Shown: piece by piece, positions 5,399-61,453 of the stretch
Position numbering within the stretch: position 1 is the first letter of the stretch
Layout: each line of letters opens with the position of its first letter
Source: a virus
Strand: one strand, 5' to 3'
DNA: 64,000 nt
IMG/VR virus record: IMGVR_UViG_3300020419_001305
Span: 1 to 64,000 of that record
Position numbers and translations under genes: made by a program
Notes under the pieces: generated by a model
Told to the model about the DNA's origin: nothing
The model's database searches: none
The model's input: the letters and a program-made list of their open reading frames with translations, nothing else

Positions 5399-5406
5399 TA
5401 TAAATA
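5399..5406 (+). promoter_or_regulatory. T4-type late promoter TATAAATA, overlapping a TTGACA..TATGCT promoter
   Basis: exact T4 late consensus directly upstream of the tmRNA. Confidence 0.7.
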
Positions 5407-5414
5407 CACTACAA

Positions 5415-5730: not shown

Positions 5731-5744
5731 TTATGGGAGCTGGT

Positions 5745-15945: not shown

Positions 15946-16991
15946 GAATCGAACAGGATATTAAACTAGACTACCAAGATGTGCTTTTTAAGCCTAAAAG
16001 ATCTACTTTAACATCTAGGAAAGATGTAGACCTAACAAGAACATTCAAATTTTATAATAGTGGCAAAGAATGGACTGGTGTTCCTATCATGTCAAGTAAC
16101 ATGGATGGTGTAGGAACATTTTCTATGGCAAAGATTTTACAAGAAAAGAAAATGATCACTGTGTTAAGAAAACATTATACATTAGATGATTGGAAAACTG
16201 CTATAGGTGATGGAGTGAAAATGAAGTACCTAGCTGTCTGTACAGGTACAGGAGTAATATGGGATAAAGATGCTTTGGATTATAACACTATGAAACAAGT
16301 GTTGGAAAAATATCCAGACATCCCTTTTATTTGTGTAGATGTAGCAAACGGTTATCACGAGAACTACGGTGACTTCATTGAAAAACTAAGGTACGAATAT
16401 CAGGATAAAACTATCATAGCAGGTAATGTTATTACTGGGGAAATGACTGAAGAATTAATCTTAAGAGGAGCCGACGTAGTTAAGTGTGGAATTGGTCCTG
16501 GATCAGTATGTACTACACGATTAATGACAGGTGTTGGAGTTCCGCAACTATCAGGCATCATTGAATGTGCTGATGCGGCCAATGGCGTTGGAGGACACAT
16601 TATTGCTGACGGAGGTTGTGTACATCCAGGAGATGTTGCTAAAGCCTTTGGAGCAGGTGCTCACTTTGTAATGCTTGGCGGTATGTTAGCAGGACACGAT
16701 GAGAGCGAAGGTGAAGTAATTAATGGCAAAGTACAATTTTACGGAATGAGTTCAAATGCGGCTATGACGAAGCATGGTTCACGTAAAGATGGTTACCGTG
16801 GAGCAGAAGGCAAGGTGGTTGAACTTCCTTATAAAGGTGCGGTAAACGACACAGTAACAGAAATATTAGGCGGTGTACGTTCCGCGGCTACATATATTGG
16901 TGCTAAACGTATTAAAGACATGCCAAAATGTACTACCTTTGTACGTGTCAATAATGTAGTAAACAAGGTTTATACTCCGTTTGAAGCATAA
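15942..16991 (+). CDS. guaC: GMP reductase
   Basis: PKRSTL.SR, DVANGY, GIGPGSVCTTR, YRGAEGK. Confidence 0.95.
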   Translation: MRIEQDIKLDYQDVLFKPKRSTLTSRKDVDLTRTFKFYNSGKEWTGVPIMSSNMDGVGTFSMAKILQEKKMITVLRKHYTLDDWKTAIGDGVKMKYLAVCTGTGVIWDKDALDYNTMKQVLEKYPDIPFICVDVANGYHENYGDFIEKLRYEYQDKTIIAGNVITGEMTEELILRGADVVKCGIGPGSVCTTRLMTGVGVPQLSGIIECADAANGVGGHIIADGGCVHPGDVAKAFGAGAHFVMLGGMLAGHDESEGEVINGKVQFYGMSSNAAMTKHGSRKDGYRGAEGKVVELPYKGAVNDTVTEILGGVRSAATYIGAKRIKDMPKCTTFVRVNNVVNKVYTPFEA

Positions 16992-17062
16992 AATGGTAAA
17001 AAAATCACTTGACTTTTAGCCGTATTATGCTTATATTAATACTAGTATGATAAATACTATTG

Positions 17063-17146
17063 TTGAAGATATGCCAGGGTTGGGTATTTTTAACAAGGGC
17101 ACGAGCCCAAATAACGTTAACTTGCTTATATAAGGAGAAAACAATG
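17063..17146 (+). promoter_or_regulatory. ROSE-like RNA thermometer in the hsp20 5' UTR
   Basis: two upstream hairpins, then CTTGCTT-ATAT-AAGGAG pairing the SD with a bulged G (UUGCU/AGGA ROSE signature). Confidence 0.7.
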
Positions 17147-17584
17147 ACAAGAGTAACTACACTAAACCTACCCACTTTTCACAGATCAATGATTGGATTC
17201 GATAGTTTGTTCGATGAAATGGACAGAATGTTCGAAAACAGTACAACTTCATCTGGTGGATATCCCCCATACAATATAGCTAAGATCAACGAAGATGAGT
17301 TTATGATCTCAATCGCAGTTGCTGGCTTTGGTATGGATAACCTTAAGATTGAAAAGGACAAAAATGTGCTTACAATCGAAGGTACACAGCCGAAAGGTAC
17401 TGAAGAAGTGAACTACGTTCACAGAGGTATTGCTGGACGTAATTTCAGCAGACAGTTTACATTAGCAGAACATGTTGATGTAACATCAGCAAAACTAGAA
17501 AAAGGTATGCTAAACATACATTTGACTAGAGAAGTACCAGAAGCACTGAAACCTAAAACAATTGATATTGTAGAGGCAGAGTAA
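17144..17584 (+). CDS. small heat shock protein (Hsp20/IbpA family)
   Basis: IGFD.LF, YPPYNI, AVAGF, HRGIA.R.F; start reassigned to the ATG after AAGGAG. Confidence 0.95.
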   Translation: MTRVTTLNLPTFHRSMIGFDSLFDEMDRMFENSTTSSGGYPPYNIAKINEDEFMISIAVAGFGMDNLKIEKDKNVLTIEGTQPKGTEEVNYVHRGIAGRNFSRQFTLAEHVDVTSAKLEKGMLNIHLTREVPEALKPKTIDIVEAE

Positions 17585-17631: not shown

Positions 17632-17946
17632 ATGACTGAGATTATTTTAGAAAAAGAAATAAACGTAAAAGAGCAGATTGAAGAAGTTACTAAAGAACCT
17701 TCAAAATACAAGGTTATATTTATGAACGACAACGAAACTCCTATGGACTTTGTTGTTGCTCTATTGACAGAAGTATTCAAGCATTCAGAAAAGACAGCCC
17801 AAGAACTTACCATGAAAATACATGCTGAAGGACAGGCAATAGTTGGTATATATTCATTTGAAATAGCAGAGCAAAAGGCAGTTGAAGCCACTAAATTATC
17901 ACGTGAAAATGGGTACCCACTACAGATAGCAATAGACAAAGAATAG
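17632..17946 (+). CDS. clpS: N-end rule adaptor ClpS
   Basis: YKVIFMNDNETPMDFVV, IHAEG, EIAEQK, GYPL. Confidence 0.93.
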   Translation: MTEIILEKEINVKEQIEEVTKEPSKYKVIFMNDNETPMDFVVALLTEVFKHSEKTAQELTMKIHAEGQAIVGIYSFEIAEQKAVEATKLSRENGYPLQIAIDKE

Positions 17947-17990: not shown

Positions 17991-18572
17991 ATGAGTTTAG
18001 AATCTTTAACACAAGCGTCACATCAGAACGCTGACAGAACGGAATTTGCTCGAGAGAAGATGGCCGGTAATTTGACTGAAGAAAAGTATAAAACTTTTTT
18101 ATGGAATACTTACTTGGTATATGATATCTTAGAAGATGTAGCATCTAGCATGGGAGCATTTGCGCCTATGGATCCTTCTATGCCAGCTGATGATTTACCG
18201 CTTGATGGATTAAAACAAGCAGATGATATCCTAGCTGATTTTGTTGAGCTAGGTGGTAACCCAGATAGTCCTCCTACAGAAGTACAAGCAACTGAGGATT
18301 ATAGAAATCATATCGTGAAGAACATACAACATGATAAGCAAAAGTTAATTGCTCATCTGTATGTGAATCATATGGCAGATTTAACTGACGGACCAACATT
18401 AGTAAAAAAAGTACCAGGTTCAGGAAAAATGTACAAGTTTGAAGAAATGAATCACTCTATAGAAGAGATGAAGGAACTTCTTTCAAGACGTGTTTCTGAA
18501 GGTGATGCTATAGAAGCTAACATTGGTTTCGGATTCAGAACACAACAGTACGAACAGTTAAACGCACTATAA
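17991..18572 (+). CDS. heme oxygenase-like protein with a divergent distal helix
   Basis: proximal T..SH..A motif, AHLYV, PGSGKMY.F; adjacent to pcyX. Confidence 0.8.
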   Translation: MSLESLTQASHQNADRTEFAREKMAGNLTEEKYKTFLWNTYLVYDILEDVASSMGAFAPMDPSMPADDLPLDGLKQADDILADFVELGGNPDSPPTEVQATEDYRNHIVKNIQHDKQKLIAHLYVNHMADLTDGPTLVKKVPGSGKMYKFEEMNHSIEEMKELLSRRVSEGDAIEANIGFGFRTQQYEQLNAL

Positions 18573-18573
18573 A

Positions 18574-19257
18574 ATGATTTGGGATAGGCTGGTTGAATGC
18601 CAGGACCAAATCATTAAACTGTTCGATCATCACGGAACTGAGATAAATGAACCAGGAATGGATCATTTTAATCAACCAGATAGCGGATGGATTAACAGAG
18701 TCTGGGCGAACGACGATATCAGAAGAGCTCATATAGACGTAGTAGATGCTAGAGGTTCAAAAGGCCTTTGGATGATGCACGTCTGTGTATTTCCTCAACT
18801 TAACAACAATGGACCAATTTATGGCTTTGATGTTATATCAGGAAAAAGTAAAATGACAGGAGCCTTTCATGATTTTTCAGCAAGTTCAGGTGGCGAAGAT
18901 CATCCAATGGTTCAGTGGTATCAAGATGAAGTAAAAGACTTTATTCCAGAAAAACAAAGAGAACTTCCGGAATGGGCAACAAACATTTTTACTCCTAGCA
19001 TGATTGCGGCAAGTAATGTTAGAGAAGAAGAAGCATCAGTTATCATTCAAATTGCTTTAGACAATCTTTTCACATATCTTGATACCATTGGTGAACACAC
19101 TGGTGAAGGTGACAGAGATTTAACCTTAGCTAGTCAAAATTATTATTGCCATAATCAGCAACAGAATCCACATACGCCTAGAGTAATGAAATCCTTAGGA
19201 TTAAATGAAACTGACGTAGAAAAATTCTGTACTGATATGTTATTTCCAAAAAGTTAA
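18574..19257 (+). CDS. pcyX: ferredoxin-dependent bilin reductase, PcyX type
   Basis: RRAHIDVVD (D55), WMMHVC (M67/H69/C71), PIYGFD (D86), AFHDFS, LPEWA..IF, QQQNPHT. Confidence 0.88.
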   Translation: MIWDRLVECQDQIIKLFDHHGTEINEPGMDHFNQPDSGWINRVWANDDIRRAHIDVVDARGSKGLWMMHVCVFPQLNNNGPIYGFDVISGKSKMTGAFHDFSASSGGEDHPMVQWYQDEVKDFIPEKQRELPEWATNIFTPSMIAASNVREEEASVIIQIALDNLFTYLDTIGEHTGEGDRDLTLASQNYYCHNQQQNPHTPRVMKSLGLNETDVEKFCTDMLFPKS

Positions 19258-22818: not shown

Positions 22819-22935
22819 AGCCCTCACGCTCTGCAATTTTATTTAGCTTAGATTTCACTTTTAAGCTAGACAAATCTTTTGCCCTATTAAATACATAAAA
22901 AGCAGATATTGCTAACCCAAAAAAAGGACTTAAAG

Positions 22936-23472
22936 ATGATAGAAGGATTTAGTATTCCGAAATCCACATTTAGAACACGGGTGTTCGACGAAACTACTAT
23001 GGAATATAAGTGGCAAGATGTCACTACAGATGATTATTTCAAAGGAAAAAGAGTAGTACTCTTTAGCTTACCAGGAGCATTTACGCCTACATGTTCAACT
23101 TACCAATTACCTGGCTTTGAAGAAAATTATGATATGATTCGTAACCAAGAAATAGATGAAATTTATTGTGTATCAGTAAATGACGCATTTGTAATGAATG
23201 CTTGGGGCAAGGATCAAAAAATACAACACGTGAAAATGATACCAGATGGTTCAGGAAATTTTACGAGATTCATGGGAATGTTAATCGGAAAAAATCACTT
23301 AGGATTTGGTATGCGTAGTTGGAGATACATGGCTGTAATAAAAGACGGCATCGTTGAAAAATGGTGGCAAGAGCCAGGTATTAATAATGACGGATCAGAC
23401 GATGATCCTTATATTCAAACCACTCCAGAAAATTGTTTAGAATATCTTAAAACAAAAATTACTGGTTTTTAA
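22936..23472 (+). CDS. peroxiredoxin (Prx5/redoxin family)
   Basis: FSLPGAFTPTCS, SVNDAFVM, GMRSWRY; start at the ATG after AAGGA. Confidence 0.93.
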   Translation: MIEGFSIPKSTFRTRVFDETTMEYKWQDVTTDDYFKGKRVVLFSLPGAFTPTCSTYQLPGFEENYDMIRNQEIDEIYCVSVNDAFVMNAWGKDQKIQHVKMIPDGSGNFTRFMGMLIGKNHLGFGMRSWRYMAVIKDGIVEKWWQEPGINNDGSDDDPYIQTTPENCLEYLKTKITGF

Positions 23473-26676: not shown

Positions 26677-26893
26677 TAATAAATGTATGGTAACCTGTAC
26701 AGATAACGACAAAGTGGCAGAAGCTGAAGTAGACCATTTAATTGATAAAGACAGACTTACAATCTTTCTTGCCCAAAATAAGATCCATATGAAATATAAC
26801 GGAAGTGTTTATGTTGGCAATCAGTTTGGTTATGAATTTACAACAAAAGGGCCAGTAGAATTAACAAAGATGAAAGGAAGAGGCGATGCCTAA
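26660..26893 (+). CDS. hypothetical protein
   Basis: ATG after AAGGA, coupled to clpP. Confidence 0.6.
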
Positions 26894-27470
26894 TTTAGTA
26901 CCAGTAATTATTGAGAAAGAAGCAAGAGGAGAAAGAAGCTACGATATCTATAGTAGGCTTCTTAAGGATAGAATCATTATGTTAGACACAGATGTTAATA
27001 GCACCAGTGCCAGTTTAATTGTAGCCCAGATGTTATTCTTGGAATCAACTAACCCAGGCAAGCCTATTAATTTTTATATTAATTCGCCAGGAGGTAGTGT
27101 TACGGCAGGTATGAGTATATACGACACAATGCAATTTATTAAATCACCTATTCATACAACTGTGATGGGTATAGCGGCGAGCATGGGAAGTTTCCTAGCA
27201 ATGGCCGGTGAAAAAGGTAAAAGAGCAATTCTTCCACATGCTAGACATATGATACATCAACCAAGCGGTGGTGCGTCAGGGCAGGCAAGTGATGTAGAAA
27301 TAAGATATAAAGAATTACAATATTGGAAAGAAACACTTACAGATATCTACGTAACACACACAGGTTTAGATAGAGAAAAAGTTGCCAAAGACATGGATAG
27401 AGATTTCTTTATGAGTGCGAAAGAATCGATAGAATATAATTTAGCTGATTTTATAGCAGAGAAAAAATAA
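26886..27470 (+). CDS. clpP: ATP-dependent Clp protease proteolytic subunit
   Basis: [26 protein letters not shown] (Ser), MIHQP (His), DRD (Asp). Confidence 0.97.
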
Positions 27471-36875: not shown

Positions 36876-37325
36876 ATGGGAAAATACTATTCTACTAAAA
36901 CTTATGGACACAACATTGGATTGAGTGCTGTATTTAGACAGCCAAATGCTGATCATAGTCATTGTCATTTGTTACATGGATATAGCTTACAATTTAAATT
37001 TACATTTGGTTGTGATAAACTAGATAACAAGAACTGGGCTGTTGACTTTGGTGGCCTAAAGCCTTTGAAGGCTTGGCTAGAAGATAACTTCGATCATAAA
37101 TTATGTTTAGATAATAACGATCCGCACATAGGAAAATTTAAAGAACTTGAAGCATTGGATTTAGCTGAGCTTAGAATGTTTGATGGTGTAGGCGCTGAAA
37201 AATTTGCCGAACACGCATTTAACTTCGCAGATGAATTAATTAGAAAACATACAAATAATAGATGTTACGTGGTAAAAGTCGAGTGTGCCGAGCATGGTGC
37301 TAATTCTGCTATATATGAGAAATAA
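36876..37325 (+). CDS. queD: 6-carboxytetrahydropterin synthase / PTPS family
   Basis: C..LHGY, VDFG.LK, FDH, AE; TTGACA-17-TATAAT promoter at 36823-36851. Confidence 0.88.
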   Translation: MGKYYSTKTYGHNIGLSAVFRQPNADHSHCHLLHGYSLQFKFTFGCDKLDNKNWAVDFGGLKPLKAWLEDNFDHKLCLDNNDPHIGKFKELEALDLAELRMFDGVGAEKFAEHAFNFADELIRKHTNNRCYVVKVECAEHGANSAIYEK

Positions 37326-38381: not shown

Positions 38382-39092
38382 ATGGTAGATAAATTTATTT
38401 TTGATGTGGACGGAACACTCACACCTAGTAGACGGCAAATAGATGATGACTTTGCCGTTTTCTTTTCAGACTTCTGTGCTGAAAATGATGTATATCTTGT
38501 TACTGGAAGTGATAGAGAAAAAACAATCGAACAGGTTGGAGAAGAAATATACAGTCTTGCTGATAGAGTTTACAACTGTTCTGGAAGTGATGTCTGGGAA
38601 GGAAATGTAAATGTTTATACAAGCGACTGGCAAATACCAGAAGAAGCAGAAAAATGGCTCAAGGGAGAATGTAGGTGTAGTGAATTTCCTCTAAGGACAG
38701 GATTACATATTGAGAAAAGACCAGGTATGGTAAATTTCAGTGTTGTTGGTAGGAATGCTACAATGGGAGAACGTCAACTTTATGTTGAATGGGATACTAA
38801 AGAAAATGAACGAATTAAAATAGCTAAAGAATTCCAAAAGTTTTTTCCTGCTATCCAGGCAGTGGTAGGTGGTGATACTGGAATTGATATTTTTCCGTAT
38901 GGAAAAGATAAGGCCCAAATTATAAATGACTTTAATGAATTAGATGATACTTTACACTTTTTTGGAGATAGAATGGATCCTGCTGGAAATGATTATCCAC
39001 TTAAGAAAGTAATACTTGACAACGATCTTGGTGTATGCTACAATGTAGAAGGTTGGAAACACACATGGAAGTTATTAAAAAAACATGACTAA
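38382..39092 (+). CDS. HAD-IIB hydrolase, eukaryote-type phosphomannomutase-like
   Basis: FDVDGTLT, VTGSD, FFGDR..P.GNDY. Confidence 0.85.
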   Translation: MVDKFIFDVDGTLTPSRRQIDDDFAVFFSDFCAENDVYLVTGSDREKTIEQVGEEIYSLADRVYNCSGSDVWEGNVNVYTSDWQIPEEAEKWLKGECRCSEFPLRTGLHIEKRPGMVNFSVVGRNATMGERQLYVEWDTKENERIKIAKEFQKFFPAIQAVVGGDTGIDIFPYGKDKAQIINDFNELDDTLHFFGDRMDPAGNDYPLKKVILDNDLGVCYNVEGWKHTWKLLKKHD

Positions 39093-40116
39093 ACGTATAG
39101 GATTCGCATGTAAATACATGCACGAGAATCAAAACCAAAAAAAGAAAATATTAGAAGAAATACAAAGACCTTTGAATACAAGGTCAACAACTGTTGCTTG
39201 GTTAAATAGACAAACAAAAGAAGTAGCAGAAGAAAGATTATGGGATATTTGTAAACATAATATCCAATCATATTATAACTTGATAAAGTATGTAGGAGGA
39301 TTGCCACATGAGTTACGAATGGTTAGACTTGGTTCCGATGTATTGCCTGTTTATACTGAGCCTACTTGGGGCTATTTCTGGAAGTTACCTGATGTACGTA
39401 AATATTGCGAACAGGCTTTGGCACCAGTCGGTAAGTTGGCTCGCGATCTTGATGTACGCCTTAGTATGCACCCTGGTCAGTTTACTGTCCTTGCTAGTGC
39501 TAGTGACGATATAGTTGAAAGAAGTATAGAGGAGTTTGAATATCATGTTGATGTCGCCAGATGGATGGGCTTCGGCCAGCAATTCCAAGATTTTAAGATC
39601 AATGTCCACATCTCCGGCCGTAAGGGTCCAGCCGGTATCCTCGACATCCACCCAAGATTATCTCCGGAGGCGAGAAACACAATTACAATCGAGAACGACG
39701 AAAACTCGTGGGGGCTTGACGCAAGTCTTGAACTTGGACACAAACTCGCTTTGGTCCTCGACATACACCATCACTGGGTCAAAACAGGTGAGTATATTAA
39801 CCCCTCCGACGATAGATTTTCTCGCGTGATAGATAGCTGGCGTGGTGTACGTCCTGTTATACACTATTCTGTTTCTAGAGAAGATTATCTTGTAGATTTT
39901 GATCCTAATACAAAACCCGTAATGGATACACTATTGCTTGAAGGTTACAAAAAACAAAAACTAAGAGCCCATAGTGATTTTATGTGGAACAACTCAGTCA
40001 ATGATTGGGCATTAAGTTTTTGGGAACACGCAGATATTATGGTAGAGAGCAAGGCTAAAAACCTAGCTAGTGAGAAGTTATTTCAACACTGGATGTCAAC
40101 CACGCAACACTACTAA
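39085..40116 (+). CDS. uvdE: UV-damage endonuclease
   Basis: RIGFAC, RLSMHPGQF, IEND, LDIHHH, RAHSD, MVESK.K. Confidence 0.93.
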   Translation: MTKRIGFACKYMHENQNQKKKILEEIQRPLNTRSTTVAWLNRQTKEVAEERLWDICKHNIQSYYNLIKYVGGLPHELRMVRLGSDVLPVYTEPTWGYFWKLPDVRKYCEQALAPVGKLARDLDVRLSMHPGQFTVLASASDDIVERSIEEFEYHVDVARWMGFGQQFQDFKINVHISGRKGPAGILDIHPRLSPEARNTITIENDENSWGLDASLELGHKLALVLDIHHHWVKTGEYINPSDDRFSRVIDSWRGVRPVIHYSVSREDYLVDFDPNTKPVMDTLLLEGYKKQKLRAHSDFMWNNSVNDWALSFWEHADIMVESKAKNLASEKLFQHWMSTTQHY

Positions 40117-40123
40117 ATACAGT

Positions 40124-40684
40124 ATGCGTTTTTTAGAAATACAAGACTGCCAAAGAACCAAGGCTAGGACATGTCAATGTAAAGATATTGAAAAAATATC
40201 TGAAGATGTAGACATTCCGGTGGTAGCAATAAGTGATCTAGAACACTCCGATAAAGTCAAAGGTACTATATTATTCATGCAGAAGAAAGGTTCTCCTACT
40301 CTTATTAAAGGTAAAGTAACAGGATTAGAACCAGGAGCACATGGATTTCATATACACGAGTTCGGAGACCTAAGTCAAGGTTGTGAATCAGCAGGCGCCC
40401 ATTATAATCCAGACGGTGTAGATCATGGCGATCTCGAAGATGGACATGTGGGAGATTTAGGAAACATCGAAGCAAACGAAGACGGCATTGCCGAATTTTC
40501 TTTTCCAGCAAAAAGAGTAGAATTGATTGGTGAAAGAAGTATTGTAGGTAGAGCTGTTGTCGTTCACAGTGATGAAGATGATCTAGGTAAAGGCGGAGAC
40601 GCAGAAAGCCTTAAGACAGGTAACGCAGGCGACAGGTTAGCTTGTGGTGTTATTACCTTAACAAAAGGAGAAAATAATGATTAA
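40124..40684 (+). CDS. sodC: Cu/Zn superoxide dismutase
   Basis: HGFHIH, GAHYNP, H, GHVGDLGN, VVH, GNAG.RLACG; all metal ligands present; no signal peptide. Confidence 0.95.
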   Translation: MRFLEIQDCQRTKARTCQCKDIEKISEDVDIPVVAISDLEHSDKVKGTILFMQKKGSPTLIKGKVTGLEPGAHGFHIHEFGDLSQGCESAGAHYNPDGVDHGDLEDGHVGDLGNIEANEDGIAEFSFPAKRVELIGERSIVGRAVVVHSDEDDLGKGGDAESLKTGNAGDRLACGVITLTKGENND

Positions 40685-41512: not shown

Positions 41513-44500
41513 ATGGCAAGACAAGATATTTACTTAGGGGTTGAGGGTAACGACGGTACTGGTGATAGTATCCGCGAAGCGTTTAAAAAAGCTAACGAGA
41601 ATTTTACAGAACTGTATGCTGTATTCGGGCAAGGCGGTACTATAAGTTTTACAGCTTTAAGTGATTCTCCTTCAGCTATTACACCCAACGGAGTTTTAAT
41701 TGGAAACACAACTGGTACAGAATTAATTGCGAAAACACTTACTGGTGGCACAGGAATATCTATAGATAATACCAGTTTAACAAATATTACAATTACAAAC
41801 ACTGGTGCTAATATTAATGCTGATACAAGTCCTATTTTAGGAGGACCTTTAAGTGGTAATGCTGTATATCCTATAGGAAAGATAAACACATCTGCCGCGG
41901 CTATAGCAGAATTTAATTCAACACACGCATCACAAATTACTATTGATGACATTGTTACAGACAAAAAATACCAAGATAAAAATTATGCACCACACACTAT
42001 TACACAATCTAACAAATCTGTATATGCTAGAACAGAGCCAACTGATGATAATGAATACACACAAACAATTACAGAATATAGTTCAGGTAATGTTGTTATA
42101 TCGGGTCACGGGTTTGATAACAGCTTCAATGGTACTCAGTGGAAATATTCTACTACAAATACAGCACCAAACGGTTTAACAAATAATACAAATTACTTTA
42201 TTAGATTTGTAAGTGAAAATCAAATTAGTTTACATACAAGTAAAGCAGAAGCACAAAACGATAACGATTTAACTAGAGTAAAAGTTAATATAGGTTTAGG
42301 AACTACAACTGCTGTCACAGGCACAGATGTAATTAAAGACCAAAGCTATAATGAAAGTCTATACGGTAATTACAGAGTAGACGAAGTAATGCCAAGAAAC
42401 GCTTCAGTAAGAAGACAAGGCGATGAATTAGCAGGGTCACTTTACCTAGCAGACCATCCAGGATATCTAGCAGGCACTACAGGACCAATAGAAGATAGAC
42501 AAGCGGCAACTAAACTTTATGTTGATAACTCTTCTTATGCTTCTACAGAAGATCTATTTGTTACTAAACAAGGTGACGATACACAGGCAAACACTCCAGT
42601 AGGATTTGAAGGTAGGGGTTTAAGTTATGCCTATGGTAGTTTAAAAGCGGCGGCCTTAAAGGCACAAGAAATTATGGAGTCAGCTCCTATTGAACCTGGT
42701 GCCTATAGACAAACTATTACATACAACGCAGGTGATAATATATCACTTGTTACACTAGCTGAAACAAAAACAACAAATGCTTTGGCAAAAAGTGCTATTA
42801 AATATTTACAAGGCAGTAAAAAGTTTGTACAGAAATCTGTTGTTGATTATGTAAAAGATAATTTCCCACAACATAGTTTCTTTGACACTAATGTTATTAA
42901 TAAAAATACAGAAAGTTTATTATTTAAAAATAAAAAGTTTATACAAGAAGAAGTAACAGCTTGGATCAACTATCAAATTAATACAGGCGCTACAGTAAGT
43001 TATAGTGACGGTACAGCTAACTTTACAGGATTTAAATATAGTTCGGCAAAGTGTAAAAGAGATGTAGGCTATATTGTTGATGCTTGGGAAAATGACTTAG
43101 CTAGAGGCGGCAACATTGAAACAAGAAGAATAGCATCAAGCTATCTAGCTGGTGCTGTAAATGCTGTCAATAAAAATACATCTAACGCAGGCAATACAGT
43201 TAATCAAATAGCACAAACAAATGCCGCACTTGAATTTGCTAGAGATCTTGTTAAAGATTATATTTTAACAGGAACAGCATATCCGACAAAACAAGGTTAC
43301 TTCCAAGTTAACGCATCTAACTTAACAGCAAACGCATTTAGATTCTATATAGGTACATCATCATATGCTAATGTATATGTAAACGGCGGAGTTGTTACTA
43401 AATCAGACGGGACGGCACTTAATGTAAGTAATTTTACCTATGATTATACAACAGGATTTGCTGATGTAACTACTACTACAACACACGGATTGTCCGCAGG
43501 TAACACAGTCCAATTAACAGGTGTAAATGTTAATTGTACTTACGATGGTGCTACTACAGAAAAAATATATCCAGAGCTAAACAGCCAAGCAAATTGTTAT
43601 AAATTTGTAGTTCAAAATGCTGACTTCTTAGGAAATAGTCCTACAACTAACGGTTTCCAAATATATGTAGGACCTAGTAAATATGCTCACACTTATATTA
43701 GTGGCGGTACAGCAAAAGGAAACCTAACAGAATTTTCACCAACAGGAGCAACATATAATCCAACAACTGGAGATATGGTAATTACTATTGGAAGTCACAG
43801 CTTAACAACATCAAACACAATAGAAATAGAACCAAACAGTTTTACATTTACCTGTGCGAAAGATAATAATGCTACTCTTCATTCTTATCCAAGAAAAGAA
43901 TCTGTTACATCATCACCAAGCAGTGATCCAGCATATAATACAGCTTTAGCAATTACGGCAGTTGGCGGAACAACAATTACAGTCAACGTAGGGATATCTT
44001 CAGATACAAGTGCACACACTTTTGTAGGTGCTAGAAGAAATGCTGTAAAATATTACACAGCAAACACAAGTATTTCAGGATTTAATTACAGTAATACAAA
44101 CGGGTATGCTACAGTAACAACGTCAAGTGCTCATGGACTAGTCGCAGGTAATAAAGTTGAATTAGCAGACATATATCTATCTTGTACTGCTCCTACAACA
44201 AGTAACACATATTACCCACAACCTATATATGGTGACTATGGAACAGGTAACAGTGACATTCCTACAAGAGCAACAGCATTAACAGAACTTATAGTTGATG
44301 TTATTGCCAACGGATTAGGTAAAGTTCCTGCTCCAGTACAACCGCAAAAATCTAATAACACCTGTGAAAGAGATTTAGGATTAATAATCGATGGAATGAT
44401 TATTGATATAAGGAACGGAACCAACTCTAACTTCAATGCCTTACAAGCGGCTAAGAGATACTTTAGTACACCAAGTGGAGCTAAAGCTAGAATAAGTCAA

Positions 44501-47500
44501 AAAGCAGAAACACTTGCGGCATTGACAAAAGCAAAATCATATGTTAGAAGTGTAGTTTCAAATACGGATTTAAAAAGACAATCAAGATTGTTTTCAGTTG
44601 AAAGTGCCAACTTAACTACAACACAATTTCAAATTGCTGTAGGAACTTCGAATACAGTACACACTTATGTAAGAGGCGGAACAGTTACTTTTGGAAATAC
44701 TGTCTTTACTATTAACAATTTTTCATATAATAATGTTACAGGAAAAGGATTAATTACTACAACTACAGCACATGGATTAACAACAGGTAATGTTGTACAG
44801 ATTGATGATGTAGTATTTGAATGTAATACTGGTATAAAAGAATATCCTGGAGAGTTTTCAACAGATATTCCACAATACTTAGATAGTACATTAACAACAG
44901 TATCAGATACCATTAAAAATGCTTTAGACAACCAATTTGATATTATTATAGACATTTTAACAAATGGATTTACAGCAGTTGATACTTATACCGTAGTAGA
45001 AGGTAGTACATATAAAATACAATTTAGTAATGGTGGATCAAACTATTATACTGATCAAGGTATAAACAGCAACGTAGATATACTTCCAGGAAAAATTATT
45101 GTAGGTAAAACTACCGGAGCAAGAGGTAGAATTGTAAAATATACAAGTGGTGTAGATTTAGGTAATGTTGCCTACGACGAAGTAGAAGTAGTATTAGTTG
45201 AACCAAAAGAATTTAGAATCGGTGAGGAACTAGAGTATGGTAATGGAACAAAAGAGAAACAAATTTGTATCCATGTAGAATCAGGAATATACTACGAAGA
45301 TTATCCAATCAAAGTTCCGGATAACGTTTCTATTAAAGGTACAGACTTTAGACGTTGTCAAATTAGGCCGGCTCCTAGAATTTCTCAATCACCTTGGGCT
45401 AAAACTTATTTTTATAGAGATAAACTTTTAGACAACTTACAAATTACAGACTTTACCGGAGCCGATATTGCTACGGCACAAGATATTACGCTTACAGGAA
45501 TAAATGAAGCAGGTGGAATTATCACTGTTAGTCCAGCAGATAATATTGCTCCTATCGCTTGGGACGGTGCTTGGTTCTATACAGATAACGGCGCAGTTGG
45601 ATTAATTTCAAATGCTGATGGCGGAAGTGATTTTAATGTTACTTTGACTGTAGACATTTTACCAAACTTAGGTACAATAAGTGCAGGTGCTTGGCACGTT
45701 AAGAAAACTGTAAATTACGGATATCACTATCTAACTGATCCAGGAGACGCAACCAGTGTAGCAAAACGTAACGATCAAATGGACGTATTCTTAATGAATG
45801 ATGCTACAAGGTTAGCAAACATGTCATTCCAAGGACACGGTGGATTTGCTCAGGTACTTGACCCAGCAGGACAGGTTCTAATTAAATCTCCATATACACA
45901 GGTTTGTGGAAGTTTCTCAGGTAGTGCTAACAAACAAGCATTTAGAGGTGGTATGTTTATTGATGGTTTCTCAGGAAACTTAGAAACTGTTATCACAAGT
46001 AAAGATGACAATTATACACTTAATGTTCAATCAGCGGCTGGCACAGGTTTAAGAGTTAGAAGACCACAAACACCAGCACCGTTCTTTATAAACGGAGTAA
46101 GATACCAAGTTGATGCTATTTCAGAATATGATGGCGGAGCAGGTACTGCCAAACTGTTAATTAATAAACTATCAAATGGCGGAAGTGGTTATTCAGATGC
46201 TATACCAGGAGGCGGTACAAACATCTTTATTCAAACTGCTGGTAACAGAAGTATGTTGGCAAACGACTATACTCAGGTTAACGATTTAGGTTATGGATTA
46301 TTTGTTAACAACGCAGGACTTTCAGAACAAGTTTCAACTTTTACATATTATAACCACATTGCTTTCTTTAGTAATAATGGTTCAGAAATTAGAGCCCTTA
46401 ACTGTTCTAACGCAAATGGTAACTTTGGTTTAGTTGCGGCAGGATCAGATCCAAACGAAACTGTTGATGCTATCACATCTATTAGAACTATGCAACAACC
46501 AGCAAAAGTTTATAACGATGCTAGTAACACTTACGGCTTTGGTGCTATTTCACATGCGGCAGGTGTTAACACAATCCATTTATATGATTGTGATTATCAT
46601 CCTTATCCGAACAGTTTAATTGATGTATATGAAAGAGATGGTAGTGGCAATATTACGGCACTAAACACTTACGAAGTTACAGCAGTATCAGTCTTATCAG
46701 TACCTACTTCAAACTCAGGAGGGTACAGTGGTGCTACAGGTCCTACGGGACGTAAAGGTGCTAACTTACCAATTTACAGATTAAATATTTCAGGAGATAC
46801 TGGACTAGCAAGTGCTATAACAGGAAATCATAATCCTTCATTGGCATCAGATGCTTCATCATATGTGATAATGAGAATGAACAAGAATCACTTGTTCTCA
46901 GGTGTATCAGGTGTGACAAGTATACGACCTTCAACAGCATTAATATTTGATGAGAATCCAGGAAGAGTATACAGAACAATTAGTTTTAACAATCAAGATT
47001 CTGATAATAGTGCATTAGCGGCAGATAGATTCCAAATTGTTTTTGATTCAGGATTTAGTCATTTAAATCTTACAGTAAATCAAACAGAGGCAGTAAACAA
47101 TACATACGCTGGTTCTGGAACAACAATGGGTGCGACAGTAGGTGACGTTGTCATTGCTATCGAAAAACTTACTGCTACTGGTATAGCTAGAATTAACAAC
47201 AACGATATGATTATGGCTTGGGGTGGTAAATTACACCAAGTTACAAATTATACAGATAGAACAACATTTGCCACAGTACAACTAGGTGATGTTGCGGCAT
47301 CAAACATTAACAGTGACAGTGGATTATTCAGTGGAGCAGGTATAGCTAAAAAAGTTTACAGCGCCGGTGGAACCACTGCTATAACATTAACATTATCATT
47401 AGCAGGAAACGAAGCCGCTAATATTACAGTTGGTATCTCAACACTTAGAGCAAACGGACACGACTTTGATAAAATAGGTACTGGTGGATTTAATACAACT

Positions 47501-49396
47501 AACTATCCAAGTATTATTTACGGTGAGCCTGTTAATGCGGCTACCCAAGCAAATGAGGTTGTTGAAAGAGGAAAAGGAAGAGTATTCTTTGCCTCAACTG
47601 ACCAAGACGGATTCTTTAGAATTGGTAAGTTCTTTAGTGTAGACCAAGGAACAGGTACAGTTACATTCGCGGCAAGCATAGCAATCAGTAACTTAGACGG
47701 ACTAGGATTTAAACAAGGTGTAAGAATTACAGAATTCAGTAATGACGACACTATGTCAGATGCTGATCCAGCGGCAGTTCCAACTGAATTTGCAACTGAA
47801 TCGTTTACTACAAGAAGGTTACACTTTGACCGCGGCGGCATACTACAAACAGTAGGAACCATAGGTCCAGGTGTTGTTGCTAGAGATGGTACAACGCCAT
47901 TGACAGGAAATTTAAGTGCTGGTAGCTTTAAAATATTTAACCATGCTGATCCAACTAACCAACAAGATGTAACAACTAAATCTTATGTAGATGCTAGAAC
48001 ACCTTTTGGTAGTGAAGCAATAGGAGTTAATATTGCTAACAGAGCAACAAACGATTTCTTAGTTTGGAATGGATCCAGTTATGATAACGCTAGTCCGGCA
48101 GGTGATATTGGTATAAGCGTTGTTGGTAACATTGCTACGTTTTCAATTACCGCAGATAGTATTGTTAACGCAGACGTTAACACTAATGCCGCAATAGCTC
48201 AAAGCAAGTTGGCAATGAATGCCGCAAGTACAAGGGCTAACGCAACAGGTATTACACAAGCCGACTTAGGATTAGCAAGTTTTGATTCAGGTGACTTTAC
48301 TGTTACTAACGGATTTGTTACATTAAAAGAAGGTAGTGTTGATTACTCAGACTTACCTGATATGGCAACTAAAACAGTTTTAGCTAACATCACAGGTGGA
48401 ACAGCAGATACGGTTGCAGTTACAATTGACGACTTAGTTGATAACTACAGTAAATTTACAACCACTGGTGTTGCTTCTAGAATTGTTAAGACTGGAACAG
48501 ATGGTAGTATTGACACACAAAAATTAAAATTAGATAACTATGAAGTTTTAGATCAAACTAACTTAACAATGACACTTAAGACACCTGGTGGTGCTAAAGT
48601 GTTTGATACTGTTGGATCTGTACCAAGTAATACTACAACAACATATCCTGGTTCAATACAAATTGGTGGAACAGATACAACACCATCTTTCTTCCAAAAG
48701 AATAGTAGTTATGGAGATCCAAGTGATGCTACTCTTAATGAACCAAGACTAGCAAGTGATTGGGTGTATACTTCGTTTATTGAAGCACCTGGAGAAAAAG
48801 GAGCTTCGTCAACTGGTATTGCTGTTGGAGCTGGTACAGGATTTACAGCGGCAGGTGAGATAGCAATTATAGCAAACAATAACGTAGCGGCTATCAAGTT
48901 TACACAAACAGCGGCAAGTCCTTCAAGTAATAACGGTTATGCTTTAGGAACATCAGCTTTAAGATACTCAACTGTATATGCCACAGCATTAGATGGGTTG
49001 GCTACATCAGCAAAATATGCTGACTTGGCAGAGAATTATCTAGCAGATGCGGAATACGAAGTAGGAACTGTTTTGATCTTTGGTGGTGAACAGGAACTTA
49101 CAACGACAGATATGAAAGGTGATACCAAAGTAGCAGGAGTTGTTTCGGAAAATCCAGCACACTTGATGAACAGTCAACTAGAAGGCGATCATGTAACACC
49201 GTTAGCATTACAAGGTAGAACTCCTTGTAAGGTAATTGGACAAGTTAAAAAAGGTGACATGATAGTTACAAGTGCTATAGCAGGGTATGGTATGGTAAAC
49301 AACGTACCAGGTATAGGAACAATAATTGGTAAAGCAGTGGGCACAAAAGATGATGACGGACACGGCATTGTTGAAGTTGTGATAGGGAGAGTATAA
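41513..49396 (+). CDS. giant virion structural protein (baseplate wedge/tail fibre-like, 2627 aa)
   Basis: N-terminal NDGTGD..R.AF.K.N.NF.ELY (T4 gp9/gp10-like), beta-helix-like region, internal repeats, C-terminal YADLAE domain. Confidence 0.85.
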   Translation: MARQDIYLGVEGNDGTGDSIREAFKKANENFTELYAVFGQGGTISFTALSDSPSAITPNGVLIGNTTGTELIAKTLTGGTGISIDNTSLTNITITNTGANINADTSPILGGPLSGNAVYPIGKINTSAAAIAEFNSTHASQITIDDIVTDKKYQDKNYAPHTITQSNKSVYARTEPTDDNEYTQTITEYSSGNVVISGHGFDNSFNGTQWKYSTTNTAPNGLTNNTNYFIRFVSENQISLHTSKAEAQNDNDLTRVKVNIGLGTTTAVTGTDVIKDQSYNESLYGNYRVDEVMPRNASVRRQGDELAGSLYLADHPGYLAGTTGPIEDRQAATKLYVDNSSYASTEDLFVTKQGDDTQANTPVGFEGRGLSYAYGSLKAAALKAQEIMESAPIEPGAYRQTITYNAGDNISLVTLAETKTTNALAKSAIKYLQGSKKFVQKSVVDYVKDNFPQHSFFDTNVINKNTESLLFKNKKFIQEEVTAWINYQINTGATVSYSDGTANFTGFKYSSAKCKRDVGYIVDAWENDLARGGNIETRRIASSYLAGAVNAVNKNTSNAGNTVNQIAQTNAALEFARDLVKDYILTGTAYPTKQGYFQVNASNLTANAFRFYIGTSSYANVYVNGGVVTKSDGTALNVSNFTYDYTTGFADVTTTTTHGLSAGNTVQLTGVNVNCTYDGATTEKIYPELNSQANCYKFVVQNADFLGNSPTTNGFQIYVGPSKYAHTYISGGTAKGNLTEFSPTGATYNPTTGDMVITIGSHSLTTSNTIEIEPNSFTFTCAKDNNATLHSYPRKESVTSSPSSDPAYNTALAITAVGGTTITVNVGISSDTSAHTFVGARRNAVKYYTANTSISGFNYSNTNGYATVTTSSAHGLVAGNKVELADIYLSCTAPTTSNTYYPQPIYGDYGTGNSDIPTRATALTELIVDVIANGLGKVPAPVQPQKSNNTCERDLGLIIDGMIIDIRNGTNSNFNALQAAKRYFSTPSGAKARISQKAETLAALTKAKSYVRSVVSNTDLKRQSRLFSVESANLTTTQFQIAVGTSNTVHTYVRGGTVTFGNTVFTINNFSYNNVTGKGLITTTTAHGLTTGNVVQIDDVVFECNTGIKEYPGEFSTDIPQYLDSTLTTVSDTIKNALDNQFDIIIDILTNGFTAVDTYTVVEGSTYKIQFSNGGSNYYTDQGINSNVDILPGKIIVGKTTGARGRIVKYTSGVDLGNVAYDEVEVVLVEPKEFRIGEELEYGNGTKEKQICIHVESGIYYEDYPIKVPDNVSIKGTDFRRCQIRPAPRISQSPWAKTYFYRDKLLDNLQITDFTGADIATAQDITLTGINEAGGIITVSPADNIAPIAWDGAWFYTDNGAVGLISNADGGSDFNVTLTVDILPNLGTISAGAWHVKKTVNYGYHYLTDPGDATSVAKRNDQMDVFLMNDATRLANMSFQGHGGFAQVLDPAGQVLIKSPYTQVCGSFSGSANKQAFRGGMFIDGFSGNLETVITSKDDNYTLNVQSAAGTGLRVRRPQTPAPFFINGVRYQVDAISEYDGGAGTAKLLINKLSNGGSGYSDAIPGGGTNIFIQTAGNRSMLANDYTQVNDLGYGLFVNNAGLSEQVSTFTYYNHIAFFSNNGSEIRALNCSNANGNFGLVAAGSDPNETVDAITSIRTMQQPAKVYNDASNTYGFGAISHAAGVNTIHLYDCDYHPYPNSLIDVYERDGSGNITALNTYEVTAVSVLSVPTSNSGGYSGATGPTGRKGANLPIYRLNISGDTGLASAITGNHNPSLASDASSYVIMRMNKNHLFSGVSGVTSIRPSTALIFDENPGRVYRTISFNNQDSDNSALAADRFQIVFDSGFSHLNLTVNQTEAVNNTYAGSGTTMGATVGDVVIAIEKLTATGIARINNNDMIMAWGGKLHQVTNYTDRTTFATVQLGDVAASNINSDSGLFSGAGIAKKVYSAGGTTAITLTLSLAGNEAANITVGISTLRANGHDFDKIGTGGFNTTNYPSIIYGEPVNAATQANEVVERGKGRVFFASTDQDGFFRIGKFFSVDQGTGTVTFAASIAISNLDGLGFKQGVRITEFSNDDTMSDADPAAVPTEFATESFTTRRLHFDRGGILQTVGTIGPGVVARDGTTPLTGNLSAGSFKIFNHADPTNQQDVTTKSYVDARTPFGSEAIGVNIANRATNDFLVWNGSSYDNASPAGDIGISVVGNIATFSITADSIVNADVNTNAAIAQSKLAMNAASTRANATGITQADLGLASFDSGDFTVTNGFVTLKEGSVDYSDLPDMATKTVLANITGGTADTVAVTIDDLVDNYSKFTTTGVASRIVKTGTDGSIDTQKLKLDNYEVLDQTNLTMTLKTPGGAKVFDTVGSVPSNTTTTYPGSIQIGGTDTTPSFFQKNSSYGDPSDATLNEPRLASDWVYTSFIEAPGEKGASSTGIAVGAGTGFTAAGEIAIIANNNVAAIKFTQTAASPSSNNGYALGTSALRYSTVYATALDGLATSAKYADLAENYLADAEYEVGTVLIFGGEQELTTTDMKGDTKVAGVVSENPAHLMNSQLEGDHVTPLALQGRTPCKVIGQVKKGDMIVTSAIAGYGMVNNVPGIGTIIGKAVGTKDDDGHGIVEVVIGRV

Positions 49397-49677
49397 TGGC
49401 TATTCTAACTATAAACATAGGAACAAGTGCAAACAAAGGCGATGGTGATCCGTTAAGAGTAGCATTTGATAAAATTAACAAAAACTTTGCGGAACTTGAT
49501 GTTAGTAATACTAAAAGAGACGTTGTTGGTTCAGTGTTCGCAGACGATTCTACATTATTAGTAGATGCTGTAAATGGAGTAATACCAGGGTACGTTAGTT
49601 TAACAACACTAAAATCAACAGTAGCGGCAAGCACCGACTTCGCAGATTTTAAAAACCGAATAGCGGCGCTGAGTTAG
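49396..49677 (+). CDS. small baseplate-associated protein
   Basis: gp9/10-like INIG..AN.G.GDPLR.AF.KIN.NF.EL. Confidence 0.7.
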   Translation: MAILTINIGTSANKGDGDPLRVAFDKINKNFAELDVSNTKRDVVGSVFADDSTLLVDAVNGVIPGYVSLTTLKSTVAASTDFADFKNRIAALS

Positions 49678-53364: not shown

Positions 53365-54063
53365 ATGGCAATACAAACAGTAAACATAGGAACAATAGCA
53401 AACGACGGCACAGGTGATGACCTACGTGAAGCGTTTGTAAAAGTTAACAACAACTTCACAGAACTAGATGCTAGAGATCCTGAAAAAACTACAGGTGCTA
53501 ATCTTGGCTCAGCAGGTGAAGGAGTATTTGCTCAAGTCAATGCCGCAGAGATGCAATTTAAAAAATTAGTTGCTGGTACTGCCGTAAGTTTAGCAAGTGA
53601 TAATAACACTATTACAATAAATTCTACAGCAACTGGATTACCTCAATTACAAGTGTTTGCTGACAATACTAATGCTACTTTTGATGCTAACAATACAGCA
53701 TTAACAATAGCAGGTGGAAATTTAGTAACAACTAATTTAGTTGGAAGTACAATTACTATTACATCTGAAACTTCATTATTTACAGATACAACACCTAAAC
53801 TAGCCGCAAACTTAGACGGACAACAAAAAGAGATTATTAATACAAGCGATATTAAAAGTAAGATATACGGAGTAGATATTAGAGATATAAAAGATGTTGC
53901 TCCTTACTTGACATTTGATCAAGGACTTGTTTTTCCAACATCTTTTTCTAGTTCACTAGATTACCTAGTAGACGCTTTAAGTATTGATTTTGATAACGGA
54001 TCATCTACATTTACAGCTTCTGCTTTACCTACCGCAGATATGGGTACACTTCCTACAGCATAA
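53365..54063 (+). CDS. baseplate-associated protein
   Basis: gp9/10-like N-terminus NDGTGDDLREAF.KVN.NF. Confidence 0.75.
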   Translation: MAIQTVNIGTIANDGTGDDLREAFVKVNNNFTELDARDPEKTTGANLGSAGEGVFAQVNAAEMQFKKLVAGTAVSLASDNNTITINSTATGLPQLQVFADNTNATFDANNTALTIAGGNLVTTNLVGSTITITSETSLFTDTTPKLAANLDGQQKEIINTSDIKSKIYGVDIRDIKDVAPYLTFDQGLVFPTSFSSSLDYLVDALSIDFDNGSSTFTASALPTADMGTLPTA

Positions 54064-60778: not shown

Positions 60779-61453
60779 ATGGGTAAAAGTGTTTATGATA
60801 TAATAAAAAGACGTAAACATGTGGTTCATTACGACATGAATCAAATTCCATCAAAAGTAGAGATAGAGAAATGTTTAAGAGCGGCATGGTCAATGACTCC
60901 TTCAAAACAAAACTGCCATCCTTATAGTATTAATATATTAGGTCCAGAACACAAAGAACAAAAAATTAAACTATGGAATTTAGTAAAAGGTAATCATTAT
61001 ACAATGGAAGAAAAAGGTGTACAAGTAGGAATGATAGACTCAGTAAGCGGTAGACCTAATCCTTACTATTATCATATAAAGATAAATCCTTACACACTTA
61101 TCATTACACCAAGACTAATTTTAAAACAAAATGAACATTATACAAGGCAGATTAAAGGGGGACATTACATGGAGCAAATGGACCCTGTTAGAATGGAGAG
61201 CAGAAAAGATATAGATTCAATTTCAGTTGAAGTAGGATTTTTCTGTGCGAATCTATGTGCTTTATTGATGGAAAGAGGATTAGATATAAGTTATACAAAT
61301 TGCTTTCCAAGACGTTTAGAATATTGGAAAGAGTTTCCTTTTTTAAAGTATGCTCCTGTTCTACTAGTTAGTATAGGAAAGGCTGAACATTATAGAGGAC
61401 TTGTTGAAGGAGATACGAAAGCACCCTTTAAAGATATAATAGAATGGAGATAG
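60779..61453 (+). CDS. nitroreductase-like protein
   Basis: IIKRRK.V..Y, AW..TPS.QN..PY, GLD.S. Confidence 0.7.
   Translation: MGKSVYDIIKRRKHVVHYDMNQIPSKVEIEKCLRAAWSMTPSKQNCHPYSINILGPEHKEQKIKLWNLVKGNHYTMEEKGVQVGMIDSVSGRPNPYYYHIKINPYTLIITPRLILKQNEHYTRQIKGGHYMEQMDPVRMESRKDIDSISVEVGFFCANLCALLMERGLDISYTNCFPRRLEYWKEFPFLKYAPVLLVSIGKAEHYRGLVEGDTKAPFKDIIEWR

Follow-up and report, generated by a model that had tools for sequence, protein, structure and literature searches.

The window, the whole 64,000-nucleotide stretch of viral DNA analysed here, encodes a giant tail-fibre protein of an uncultured marine jumbo phage, with two domains related to phycobiliproteins, each with its conserved cysteine in the position to which phycocyanin attaches its bilin. 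The same contig carries a pathway for bilin synthesis. Judged from these relationships, it is evenly balanced whether the domains bind a bilin.

The 2627-residue protein (P0001, encoded by 41513–49393 up to the stop codon) matches the PHROG tail-fibre families phrog_9851, 5342, 17885 and 19602 (E 8e-48 to 4e-14). Its orthologues are equal in length and 46–89% identical. The gp9/gp10-type adaptor motif at its N-terminus is common to the neighbouring reading frames at 49396 and 53365, both of which match phrog_677 ("baseplate wedge tail fiber connector"). With its similarity to fibre families, its baseplate-attachment N-terminus and its fibre-gene neighbours, P0001 is by sequence a phage tail fibre or baseplate fibre. 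For positions of all features see Table 1. The partial module is an additional copy of the first helix alone, lacking CxRD. The three inserted β-sandwich domains have one invariant cysteine each, namely C675, C781 and C891 (positions C256, C362 and C472 of the modeled region). The closing helix ("FDIIIDILTNG") is similar to the helix that opens module 2; no CxRD comes after it. The C-terminal 248 residues had no match in Pfam or PDB sequence searches; from its PHROG matches and its "YADLAENY" motif, the C-terminal domain is a putative intramolecular chaperone.

Table 1. Features of the fibre protein and of the bilin pathway in the window.
Feature	Position	Strand	Basis
hemC	5733–6575	+	PF01379, E 1.5e-62
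hemE	6572–7552	+	PF01208, E 2.6e-56
Heme oxygenase, 193 aa, short form	17991–18572	+	PF01126, E 1e-14
PcyX-type ferredoxin-dependent bilin reductase	18574–19257	+	PF05996, E 2.7e-16
P0001, giant fibre-type virion protein	41513–49396	+	ORF call; PHROG tail-fibre families
N-terminal baseplate-attachment adaptor motif, aa 1–35	41513–41617	+	T4_gp9_10_N, E 0.0014 (weak, under cut-off)
Partial module, aa 406–456	42728–42880	+	A2 profile E 2.2e-5, profile positions 8–58
Phycobiliprotein-like module 1, aa 458–606	42884–43330	+	A2 profile E 3.5e-32
First motif, aa 513–534	43049–43114	+	Translation
Codon of C514	43052–43054	+	Translation
Three inserted β-sandwich domains, aa ~596–901	43298–44215	+	AF2 strands; weak E1_FCCH match
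Phycobiliprotein-like module 2, aa 905–1020	44225–44572	+	A2 profile E 2.6e-20
Codon of C951 (second motif)	44363–44365	+	Translation
Fourth β domain (aa ~1026–1111) and closing helix (aa 1132–1151)	44588–44965	+	AF2 model
Central fibre body, aa 1252–2104	45266–47824	+	phrog_9851 tail fiber protein, E 8e-48
C-terminal fibre domain, aa 2465–2613, "YADLAENY" motif	48905–49351	+	phrog_19602, phrog_22593

A preliminary description of this DNA had pointed to two K-C-x-R-D motifs and to the helices around them. Both motifs are present in the translation, at C514 and C951, and so are the flanking helices, which also recur in the predicted structure. Two profiles of the module family, A1 (built from 11 modules) and A2 (150 modules), were compared with the sequences of the PDB. 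Each gave 34 matches, 33 of them phycocyanin α chains (best E 3.5e-4 and 2.7e-4, respectively). The invariant cysteine of the modules aligns to phycocyanin α Cys84 in both searches, and the register of the motif is exactly that of Cys84/Arg86/Asp87. Since two profiles agree in this way, the resemblance to phycobiliproteins is, at the level of sequence, above chance. Three homologues (P0054, P0056 and P0077) exceed the gathering cut-off of the phycobiliprotein family PF00502 (30.8–36.9 bits vs. 22.2), and P0054 aligns in a single stretch to profile positions 34–147 of 155. P0001 itself and its two excised modules gave no PF00502 match in the Pfam scan even at E ≤ 10. Only one of 150 single modules matched PF00502 at E < 0.01, and a single-sequence phmmer search of residues 420–1155 against the PDB returned no match. 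Significant similarity is confined to helices A/B to E and weak beyond, and most of the profile score stems from the motif region.

The AF2 model of residues 420–1155 (pLDDT 83.3, pTM 0.83) comprises two helical parts separated by β domains at about 596–901 and 1026–1111. Helices of the first part span residues 423–450, 464–491, 511–531 (with C514), 535–548 and 562–584; those of the second span 916–933, 951–968 (starting with C951), 974–1015 and 1132–1151. Module 1 was also modeled separately (residues 458–606, pLDDT 82.8, pTM 0.79). A wide search with this model in VIA-align ranked bilin-binding globins best, with Z-scores of 8.4–9.9 and an r.m.s.d. of 2.5–4.2 Å over 98–120 residues, as expected from the globin-like fold anticipated in the preliminary description. 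The top match was the photocobilin globin 8j2y_B (Z 9.9), and among the others were far-red allophycocyanin (8or7_A, Z 9.6, r.m.s.d. 3.3 over 107 residues), phycoerythrin (5aqd_M, Z 9.4), 8imk_G (Z 9.4, r.m.s.d. 2.5 over 103) and the bilin domain of ApcE (4xxi_A, Z 8.4). Z-scores of 8–10 are modest for helical domains; colicin and RsbR-type globins reach 7–8. In Foldseek the top 30 matches of the module were phycobiliproteins, weakly (E 0.15 or worse). The 736-residue model of residues 420–1155 retrieved nothing meaningful in Foldseek, and ESM Atlas yielded no usable match. In VIA-align, model residues 1–134 were placed on chain residues 31–145; the structural alignments thus begin at about phycobiliprotein residue 30, leaving the X-Y hairpin unmatched. 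In module arrays the spacing from cysteine to cysteine is 100–169 residues, so there is no room for such a hairpin. By profile and model, the modules are diverged phycobiliprotein-type globin domains comprising helices A/B to G without the X-Y hairpin.

Both modules are members of a repeat family that recurs in the giant fibre and baseplate proteins of T4-like phages and for which we found no published description. Each member has 100–160 residues, and a single protein can contain as many as 37 in tandem. Across 751 copies with a mutual identity of about 25–30%, the cysteine is conserved in 99%, Arg(+2) in 99% and Asp(+3) in 100%. Among the orthologues of P0001, C, K, R and D of the first motif (15 sequences) and C, E, R and D of the second are invariant. 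The family further conserves D(+14) (100%), D(+9) (80%) and N(+20) (86%), on the same helix face as the cysteine. We know of no phycobiliprotein counterpart of Asp(+14) or of Tyr(+30), which is likewise invariant, and these two residues may point to a different function of the module. Cysteines number 1.19 per 155-residue segment, with 0.15 non-motif cysteines in the core; the motif cysteine is thus essentially the only one and has no conserved partner within the module. A disulfide role was therefore rejected, and the nearly invariant cysteine agrees with its proposed use as an attachment site.

The bilin-pathway genes named in the preliminary description were all found. The genes hemC and hemE (5733–7552) supply tetrapyrrole precursors. 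The heme oxygenase (HO) matches heme oxygenases of the PDB at E 1e-7. [quoted passage not shown] HO and PcyX are located 23 kb upstream of the fibre gene.

The modules also tend to occur with a bilin supply across genomes, a test suggested in the preliminary description. In every module-bearing complete genome checked, bilin is available from a cyanobacterial host or from the phage's own HO and FDBR. Both psbA-free complete genomes selected by their modules (G039, 364 kb; G045, 207 kb) contain an HO-FDBR pair, and so does the module-bearing genome G019 (77% complete); the three FDBRs are 30–54% identical to that of the window. Within the PcyX clade, module proteins occur on 16 of 22 contigs of at least 67 kb, including the complete genome G101 (357.6 kb), which lacks psbA and encodes HO and FDBR. 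The viral records are mostly fragments (10–30% complete). A search of 50 module-bearing records found four FDBRs, against about 14 expected for one per genome from their summed CheckV completeness values; many module phages, probably cyanophages, therefore encode no FDBR. CpeT, which is lyase-like, and the module go together in a set of 17 complete genomes of cultured phages (12/14 vs. 0/3; one-sided Fisher p about 0.015, without correction for phylogeny). Our lyase search covered CpeT (PF06206), as distinct from S-type and E/F-type lyases. CpeT was not found in the window's record (G000), its complete relatives G039, G045 and G101, or the records G019, G029, G051, G052, G055, G102 and G104. 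The earlier remark that no lyase is visible is borne out for the window's record and the three complete relatives; self-attachment of the bilin would be compatible with this.

Two phages limit what the association can mean for the purpose of PcyX in phages of heterotrophs. The cultured pelagiphage Mosig has HO and a PcyX-like FDBR and no module. P-SSM2, for which bilin reductase genes have been reported (PMC2984593), has no module either. The strict form of the idea, that PcyX exists to load the module, is thus rejected, and the bilin pathway must have another use. Co-occurrence of modules and bilin genes may also reflect inheritance from a cyanophage-like ancestor.

Based on the sequence relationships and the predicted structures we propose the following scheme. 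The phage would be a T4-like jumbo phage of roughly 350 kb without psbA, with the modules in a baseplate-attached fibre. Late in infection, HemC and HemE would feed the HO and PcyX of the phage, which would produce phycoerythrobilin in a host lacking bilins of its own. One bilin per module would then be bound through a thioether at C514 or C951, where the invariant arginine and aspartate would hold its propionates and pyrrole nitrogens in the manner of phycocyanin Cys84. Attachment is proposed to be autocatalytic because no CpeT-type lyase was found, as in the bilin biosynthesis-associated globins (BBAGs) of bacteria. The fibres of an assembled virion would bear a few dozen bilins. Coloured phage particles have, to our knowledge, not been reported. 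As a whole, this scheme of phage-made phycoerythrobilin self-attached to fibre modules seems to us about as likely as not. In the original suggestion of a bilin-loaded virion, the fold, the conserved cysteine and the association with bilin supply have held; covalent bilin binding, self-attachment, a pigmented tail and a function in light are inferences.

The main alternative, somewhat unlikely in our view, is that the modules are apo structural domains. On this reading, a phycobiliprotein fold acquired from a cyanobacterial host would serve fibres and baseplate proteins as a stiff spacer or as decoration, with C-x-R-D kept for packing and salt bridges; the bilin genes would have an unrelated purpose, for example heme or iron handling, bilins as antioxidants, or photoreceptors of the host. 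Mosig and P-SSM2 are consistent with this, as are the long tandem arrays in purely structural proteins, the jumbo-phage relatives without CpeT and the weak similarity outside helices B to E. Packing alone, however, hardly explains why exactly the three bilin-contacting residues are almost invariant in so divergent a family; a lone invariant cysteine is unusual in an extracellular protein, and bilin is accessible in all module-bearing complete genomes examined. Less probable still is another task for Cys, Arg and Asp: non-covalent binding of biliverdin or heme, a metal site between the chains of a trimeric fibre, or an intermolecular cross-link that stabilizes it. D(+14), D(+9) and N(+20), atypical of phycobiliproteins, would fit such a task, and BBAG-2 and photocobilin globins, the latter including the top fold match, bind biliverdin without CXRD (PMC10151467). 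Against it, the modules have no second conserved cysteine or histidine for an intramodule metal site or disulfide, and their motif falls exactly into the phycocyanin register. That a short K-C-x-R-D-x-G-Y motif in some common helical bundle mimics the chromophore helix, by convergence or chance and with no shared descent, is very improbable: despite the predominance of the motif region in the profile score, the rarity of Pfam significance for single modules and the poor Foldseek E-values, two independent profiles point to one family at E about 3e-4, P0054 covers 114 of 155 PF00502 positions, and an independent structure search ranks bilin-binding globins first in the matching register.

Should the modules bind bilin, the virion would, as far as we know, be the first phage particle with a pigment, the phycobiliprotein fold would have gained a new use outside photosynthesis, and small fluorescent domains that label themselves could be derived from the modules. 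Should they bind none, the family still clearly illustrates how phage fibres have taken over a light-harvesting fold of the host as a building unit. With up to 37 domains of phycobiliprotein type whose attachment site is intact, such a virion protein is a candidate bilin acceptor and photoreceptor, and whether the virus particle is pigmented can now be tested. The role of HemO and PcyX in phages other than cyanophages has been described as open (PMC11480375), and the reason for their presence in phages of non-photosynthetic marine bacteria can now be sought by experiment. The same holds for light-dependent adsorption. As summarized in PMC6628666, citing Jia et al. 2010, adsorption in the dark fails for P-HM1, P-HM2 and S-PM2, in the case of S-PM2 independently of host photosynthesis, and takes place for P-SSM2 and P-SSP7. 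Modules number 5–10 in each of the first three phages, and the last two have none; published phenotype and module distribution agree in all five phages checked. It is conceivable, and on present evidence unlikely, that the modules are the photoreceptor of this behaviour, with bilin-loaded fibre and baseplate domains gating attachment by a change of conformation or energy state in light. If so, the phage of the window would extend such gating to a bilin-free host by means of its own phycoerythrobilin.

Among known systems, light-harvesting phycobiliproteins are close to the modules, above all C-phycocyanin α (CpcA, PF00502). Both have globin-like helices A/B to G, a K-C-x-R-D-x-G-Y chromophore helix with the cysteine at position 84 followed by G-G, and an aromatic-Asp pair in the preceding helix and loop. 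The phage modules lack the X-Y hairpin, so neither α/β heterodimers nor ring assemblies are expected. Unlike phycobiliproteins, they occur, alone or in tandem, inside extracellular virion proteins of 1,000–6,000 residues and carry the extra D(+14) and Y(+30); the copies in the window fall below the Pfam threshold, and their chromophore is putative. BBAGs of heterotrophic bacteria, of which BBAG-1 and BBAG-3 have CXRD and attach bilin without a lyase (Rockwell, Martin & Lagarias 2023, PMC10151467), are, by description, likewise phycobiliprotein paralogues in a non-photosynthetic setting, genetically tied to HO and FDBR. They are small stand-alone cytoplasmic proteins from compact gene clusters, whereas the phage module is part of a virion fibre with HO and PcyX at a distance. 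The globin domain of photocobilin/photoglobin (8j2y, 8j2w; Z 9.9 and 8.0), the best structural match, is also a bilin-binding globin outside photosynthesis; it differs in binding biliverdin non-covalently beside a B12 domain, in lacking CXRD and in having no detected sequence similarity to the module. T4-like cyanophages have the same module family in their giant fibre and baseplate proteins, at 3–15 copies per genome; examples are S-PM2p091 ("tail fiber"), P-HM2 gp7 ("baseplate wedge initiator"), a putative fibre of Syn9 and S-WAM2 gp224. Their hosts supply bilins and most of these phages encode CpeT, whereas the phage of the window, without psbA and CpeT on the DNA examined, carries HO, PcyX, hemC and hemE of its own.

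The two motifs given in the preliminary description were recovered in the translated ORF of P0001, the module-bearing protein: K513-C514-K-R-D from position 43049 onward and T950-C951-E-R-D with its Cys codon at 44363. Each forms the core of a helical module that occurs in repeats. An 11-copy profile retrieved 766 module copies in 80 viral loci (at most 33 per locus), and a 150-copy profile yielded 1,651 representative proteins among 1.84 billion, the richest match holding 37 copies. The distance between successive motif Cys residues has peaks at 100–119 and 130–169 amino acids. Module copies share merely about 25–30% identity overall; in 751 copies, none of them from profile training, Cys is kept in 99%, Arg(+2) in 99% and Asp(+3) in 100%. 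A module contains practically no Cys besides that of the motif, which rules out an intramodule disulfide, and the earlier concern that the motif Cys might be unconserved or disulfide-bonded within the module falls away.

The module is phycobiliprotein-like on two independent lines, sequence and structure. Searched against all PDB sequences, the two profiles gave 34 matches each, 33 of which are phycocyanin alpha chains (best E-values 3.5e-4 and 2.7e-4). The aligned region extends from helix A/B as far as the chromophore helix, with the invariant Cys falling on Cys84. Three homologues score over the gathering score of Pfam PF00502, and the homologue P0054 passes PF00502 in a single stretch (profile positions 34–147 of 155). 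The predicted model of module 1, folded with a 150-sequence alignment, has a pLDDT of 82.8 and a pTM of 0.79. A Foldseek-independent structure search of 48,161 chains supported the globin-like fold suggested previously. The top matches were bilin-binding globins, namely photocobilin (Z = 9.9), far-red allophycocyanin (Z = 9.6), phycoerythrin (Z = 9.4), an allophycocyanin-like subunit (Z = 9.4, rmsd 2.5 over 103 residues) and the ApcE bilin domain (Z = 8.4), where Z-scores of 8–10 are not high for helical domains.

Judged by PHROG matches, N-terminal motif and orthologues, P0001 is a predicted fibre-type virion protein. Several PHROG tail-fibre families match it (E = 8e-48 to 4e-14), and full-length orthologues with 46–89% identity come from marine metagenomes. 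Its first 35 residues form a gp9/gp10-like baseplate-attachment motif common to two neighbouring ORFs. This motif reads I..G...N.G.GD.LR.AF.K.N.NF.EL in the three ORFs, matches phrog_677 ('baseplate wedge tail fiber connector') and looks like a shared adaptor docking several fibre genes at one baseplate site. A partial module (residues 406–456) stands ahead of the two full modules (residues 458–606 and 905–1020), with three beta domains between these and a fourth after them. The beta-sandwich domains show a weak Pfam match to E1_FCCH and contain one invariant Cys apiece in orthologues (C675, C781, C891, C1104). The window derives from a T4-like phage (RNR, clamp loader, ligase and UvsW-era genes are present) and is part of a 78-kb IMG/VR record with a CheckV completeness of 22%. 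Since complete relatives measure about 357–365 kb, it probably belongs to a jumbo phage.

Features of the window and their positions
Feature	Position	Strand	Remark
Module-bearing ORF P0001	41513-49396	+	2627 aa
~35-aa N-terminal motif in P0001	41513-41617		
ORF opening with the same motif	49396-49677		
ORF opening with the same motif	53365-54063		
Four beta-sandwich domains between/after modules	43298-44215 and 44588-44845		'HGL..GN.V' repeats
Peroxiredoxin (Redoxin)	22909-23472		stress-related
UV endonuclease UvdE	39085-40116		stress-related
Cu/Zn superoxide dismutase	40070-40684		stress-related
Hsp20	17060-17584		stress-related
ClpS	17632-17946		stress-related
ClpP	26886-27470		stress-related
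QueD-like 6-pyruvoyl-tetrahydropterin synthase	36876-37325		further auxiliary gene
Eukaryotic-type phosphomannomutase	38382-39092		further auxiliary gene
GMP reductase or IMPDH-family enzyme	15942-16991		further auxiliary gene
Nitroreductase	60779-61453		further auxiliary gene

We propose that the modules are bilin acceptors, a reading to which we give about an even chance. The bilin would be joined to the module at the invariant Cys and, in the phage of the window, would be produced by its own heme oxygenase (HO) and PcyX. Attachment would probably proceed without a lyase, as in BBAG-1 and BBAG-3. For these CXRD-bearing bilin biosynthesis-associated globins of heterotrophic bacteria this mode has been demonstrated (PMC10151467). 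No T-type lyase was found in the window's phage clade.

The contig that encodes the module protein also carries hemC, hemE, a short HO (17991–18572) and a bilin reductase that depends on ferredoxin (FDBR; 18574–19257); psbA is absent from the sequenced DNA. The reductase had been assigned to PcyX correctly (E = 9.3e-84 to the crystallised phage PcyX, 5owg, versus about 1e-14 for PcyA). Beside the pathway stands a dense gene set whose themes are oxidative stress, UV and proteostasis. Of the 50 viral records selected for the module, most metagenomic records being small fragments, only four contain an FDBR, including both complete genomes (G039, G045) and the 77%-complete G019. HO adjoins FDBR and psbA is absent in all four; at 30–54% identity their FDBRs are not close copies of that in the window. 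Module proteins are carried by 16 of the 22 contigs of at least 67 kb with a PcyX 57–89% identical to the window's. One of these 16 (G101, complete, 357.6 kb) has nine module matches in three giant ORFs, and neither psbA nor the T-type lyase-like CpeT (PF06206) was found in its genome.

Of 17 complete genomes of cultured phages, 14, all cyanomyoviruses, carry the module, and three (P-SSM2, Mosig and HTVC008M) do not. CpeT occurs in 12 of the 14 module-bearing versus none of the three module-less genomes (Fisher's one-sided p about 0.015, uncorrected for relatedness). As to the association with bilin reductases raised in the preliminary description, a bilin source is available to each of the complete genomes examined that bear the module: a cyanobacterial host, or an HO and FDBR encoded by the phage itself. 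In S-WAM2 (NC_031935) a CpeT-like gene (5258–5782) lies ~1.3 kb upstream of the module-bearing gene (7069 onward), a 4,781-aa 'short tail fiber', with tRNAs and two HNH genes in between. P-SSM4 (NC_006884), described as lacking cpeT (PMC2984593), has a 148-aa ORF at ~16642–17064 with a match to each half of PF06206 (E = 2.4e-10 and 6.4e-6), and so, contrary to that description, possesses a short CpeT-like gene.

The Pelagibacter phage Mosig encodes HO, ferrochelatase and an FDBR that shares 55% identity with that of the window; no module was found when its whole genome was searched with the profile, nor when its first 95 kb, where the structural genes lie, were searched by HMM at maximum sensitivity. 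The complete genome of P-SSM2, whose bilin reductase genes are pebS (first named pebA) and pcyA (PMC2984593), likewise yielded no module. Bilin genes in these two module-less phages imply that such genes have a module-independent use. Mosig and HTVC008M are both filed under Kyanoviridae, and the co-occurrence of module and bilin genes could in part be inherited from an ancestor resembling cyanophages. It is possible, if doubtful, that the module is an apo structural domain.

A module serving another ligand, a metal or a cross-link is unlikely. With a conservation on a par with the C-x-R-D core, D(+14) is kept in 100%, Y(+30) in 98%, N(+20) in 86% and D(+9) in 80%; we know of no phycobiliprotein counterpart of these positions, which may point to a further role of the chromophore helix. 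Convergence or chance as the source of the resemblance is very improbable; the structural register (model 1–134 on chain 31–145) concurs with the sequence alignment.

If the modules do bear bilin, dark-adsorption phenotypes (PMC6628666) offer a suggestive lead on the role that the pigment would have: they agree with module presence in five of five phages (P-HM1, P-HM2 and S-PM2 against P-SSM2 and P-SSP7), a small comparison confounded by comprising about four independent lineages, one of them a podovirus. No paper on phycobiliprotein-like domains in structural proteins of phages came up in full-text searches, and BBAG-type globins are listed only as possible partners of phage-made bilins (PMC11480375). 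The window contributes a module together with PcyX, HO, hemC and hemE on one contig, and its analysis adds the counter-examples Mosig and P-SSM2, the CpeT association and the match to light-dependent adsorption phenotypes.

In Pfam scans for PF00502 the window's own modules stay under detection, and the Foldseek E-values are weak. The module also lacks the X-Y hairpin, which assembly of the phycobilisome type requires. Given these differences alongside the profile and predicted-fold matches, we would regard it as related to the phycobiliprotein fold but diverged, rather than as a member in the Pfam sense.
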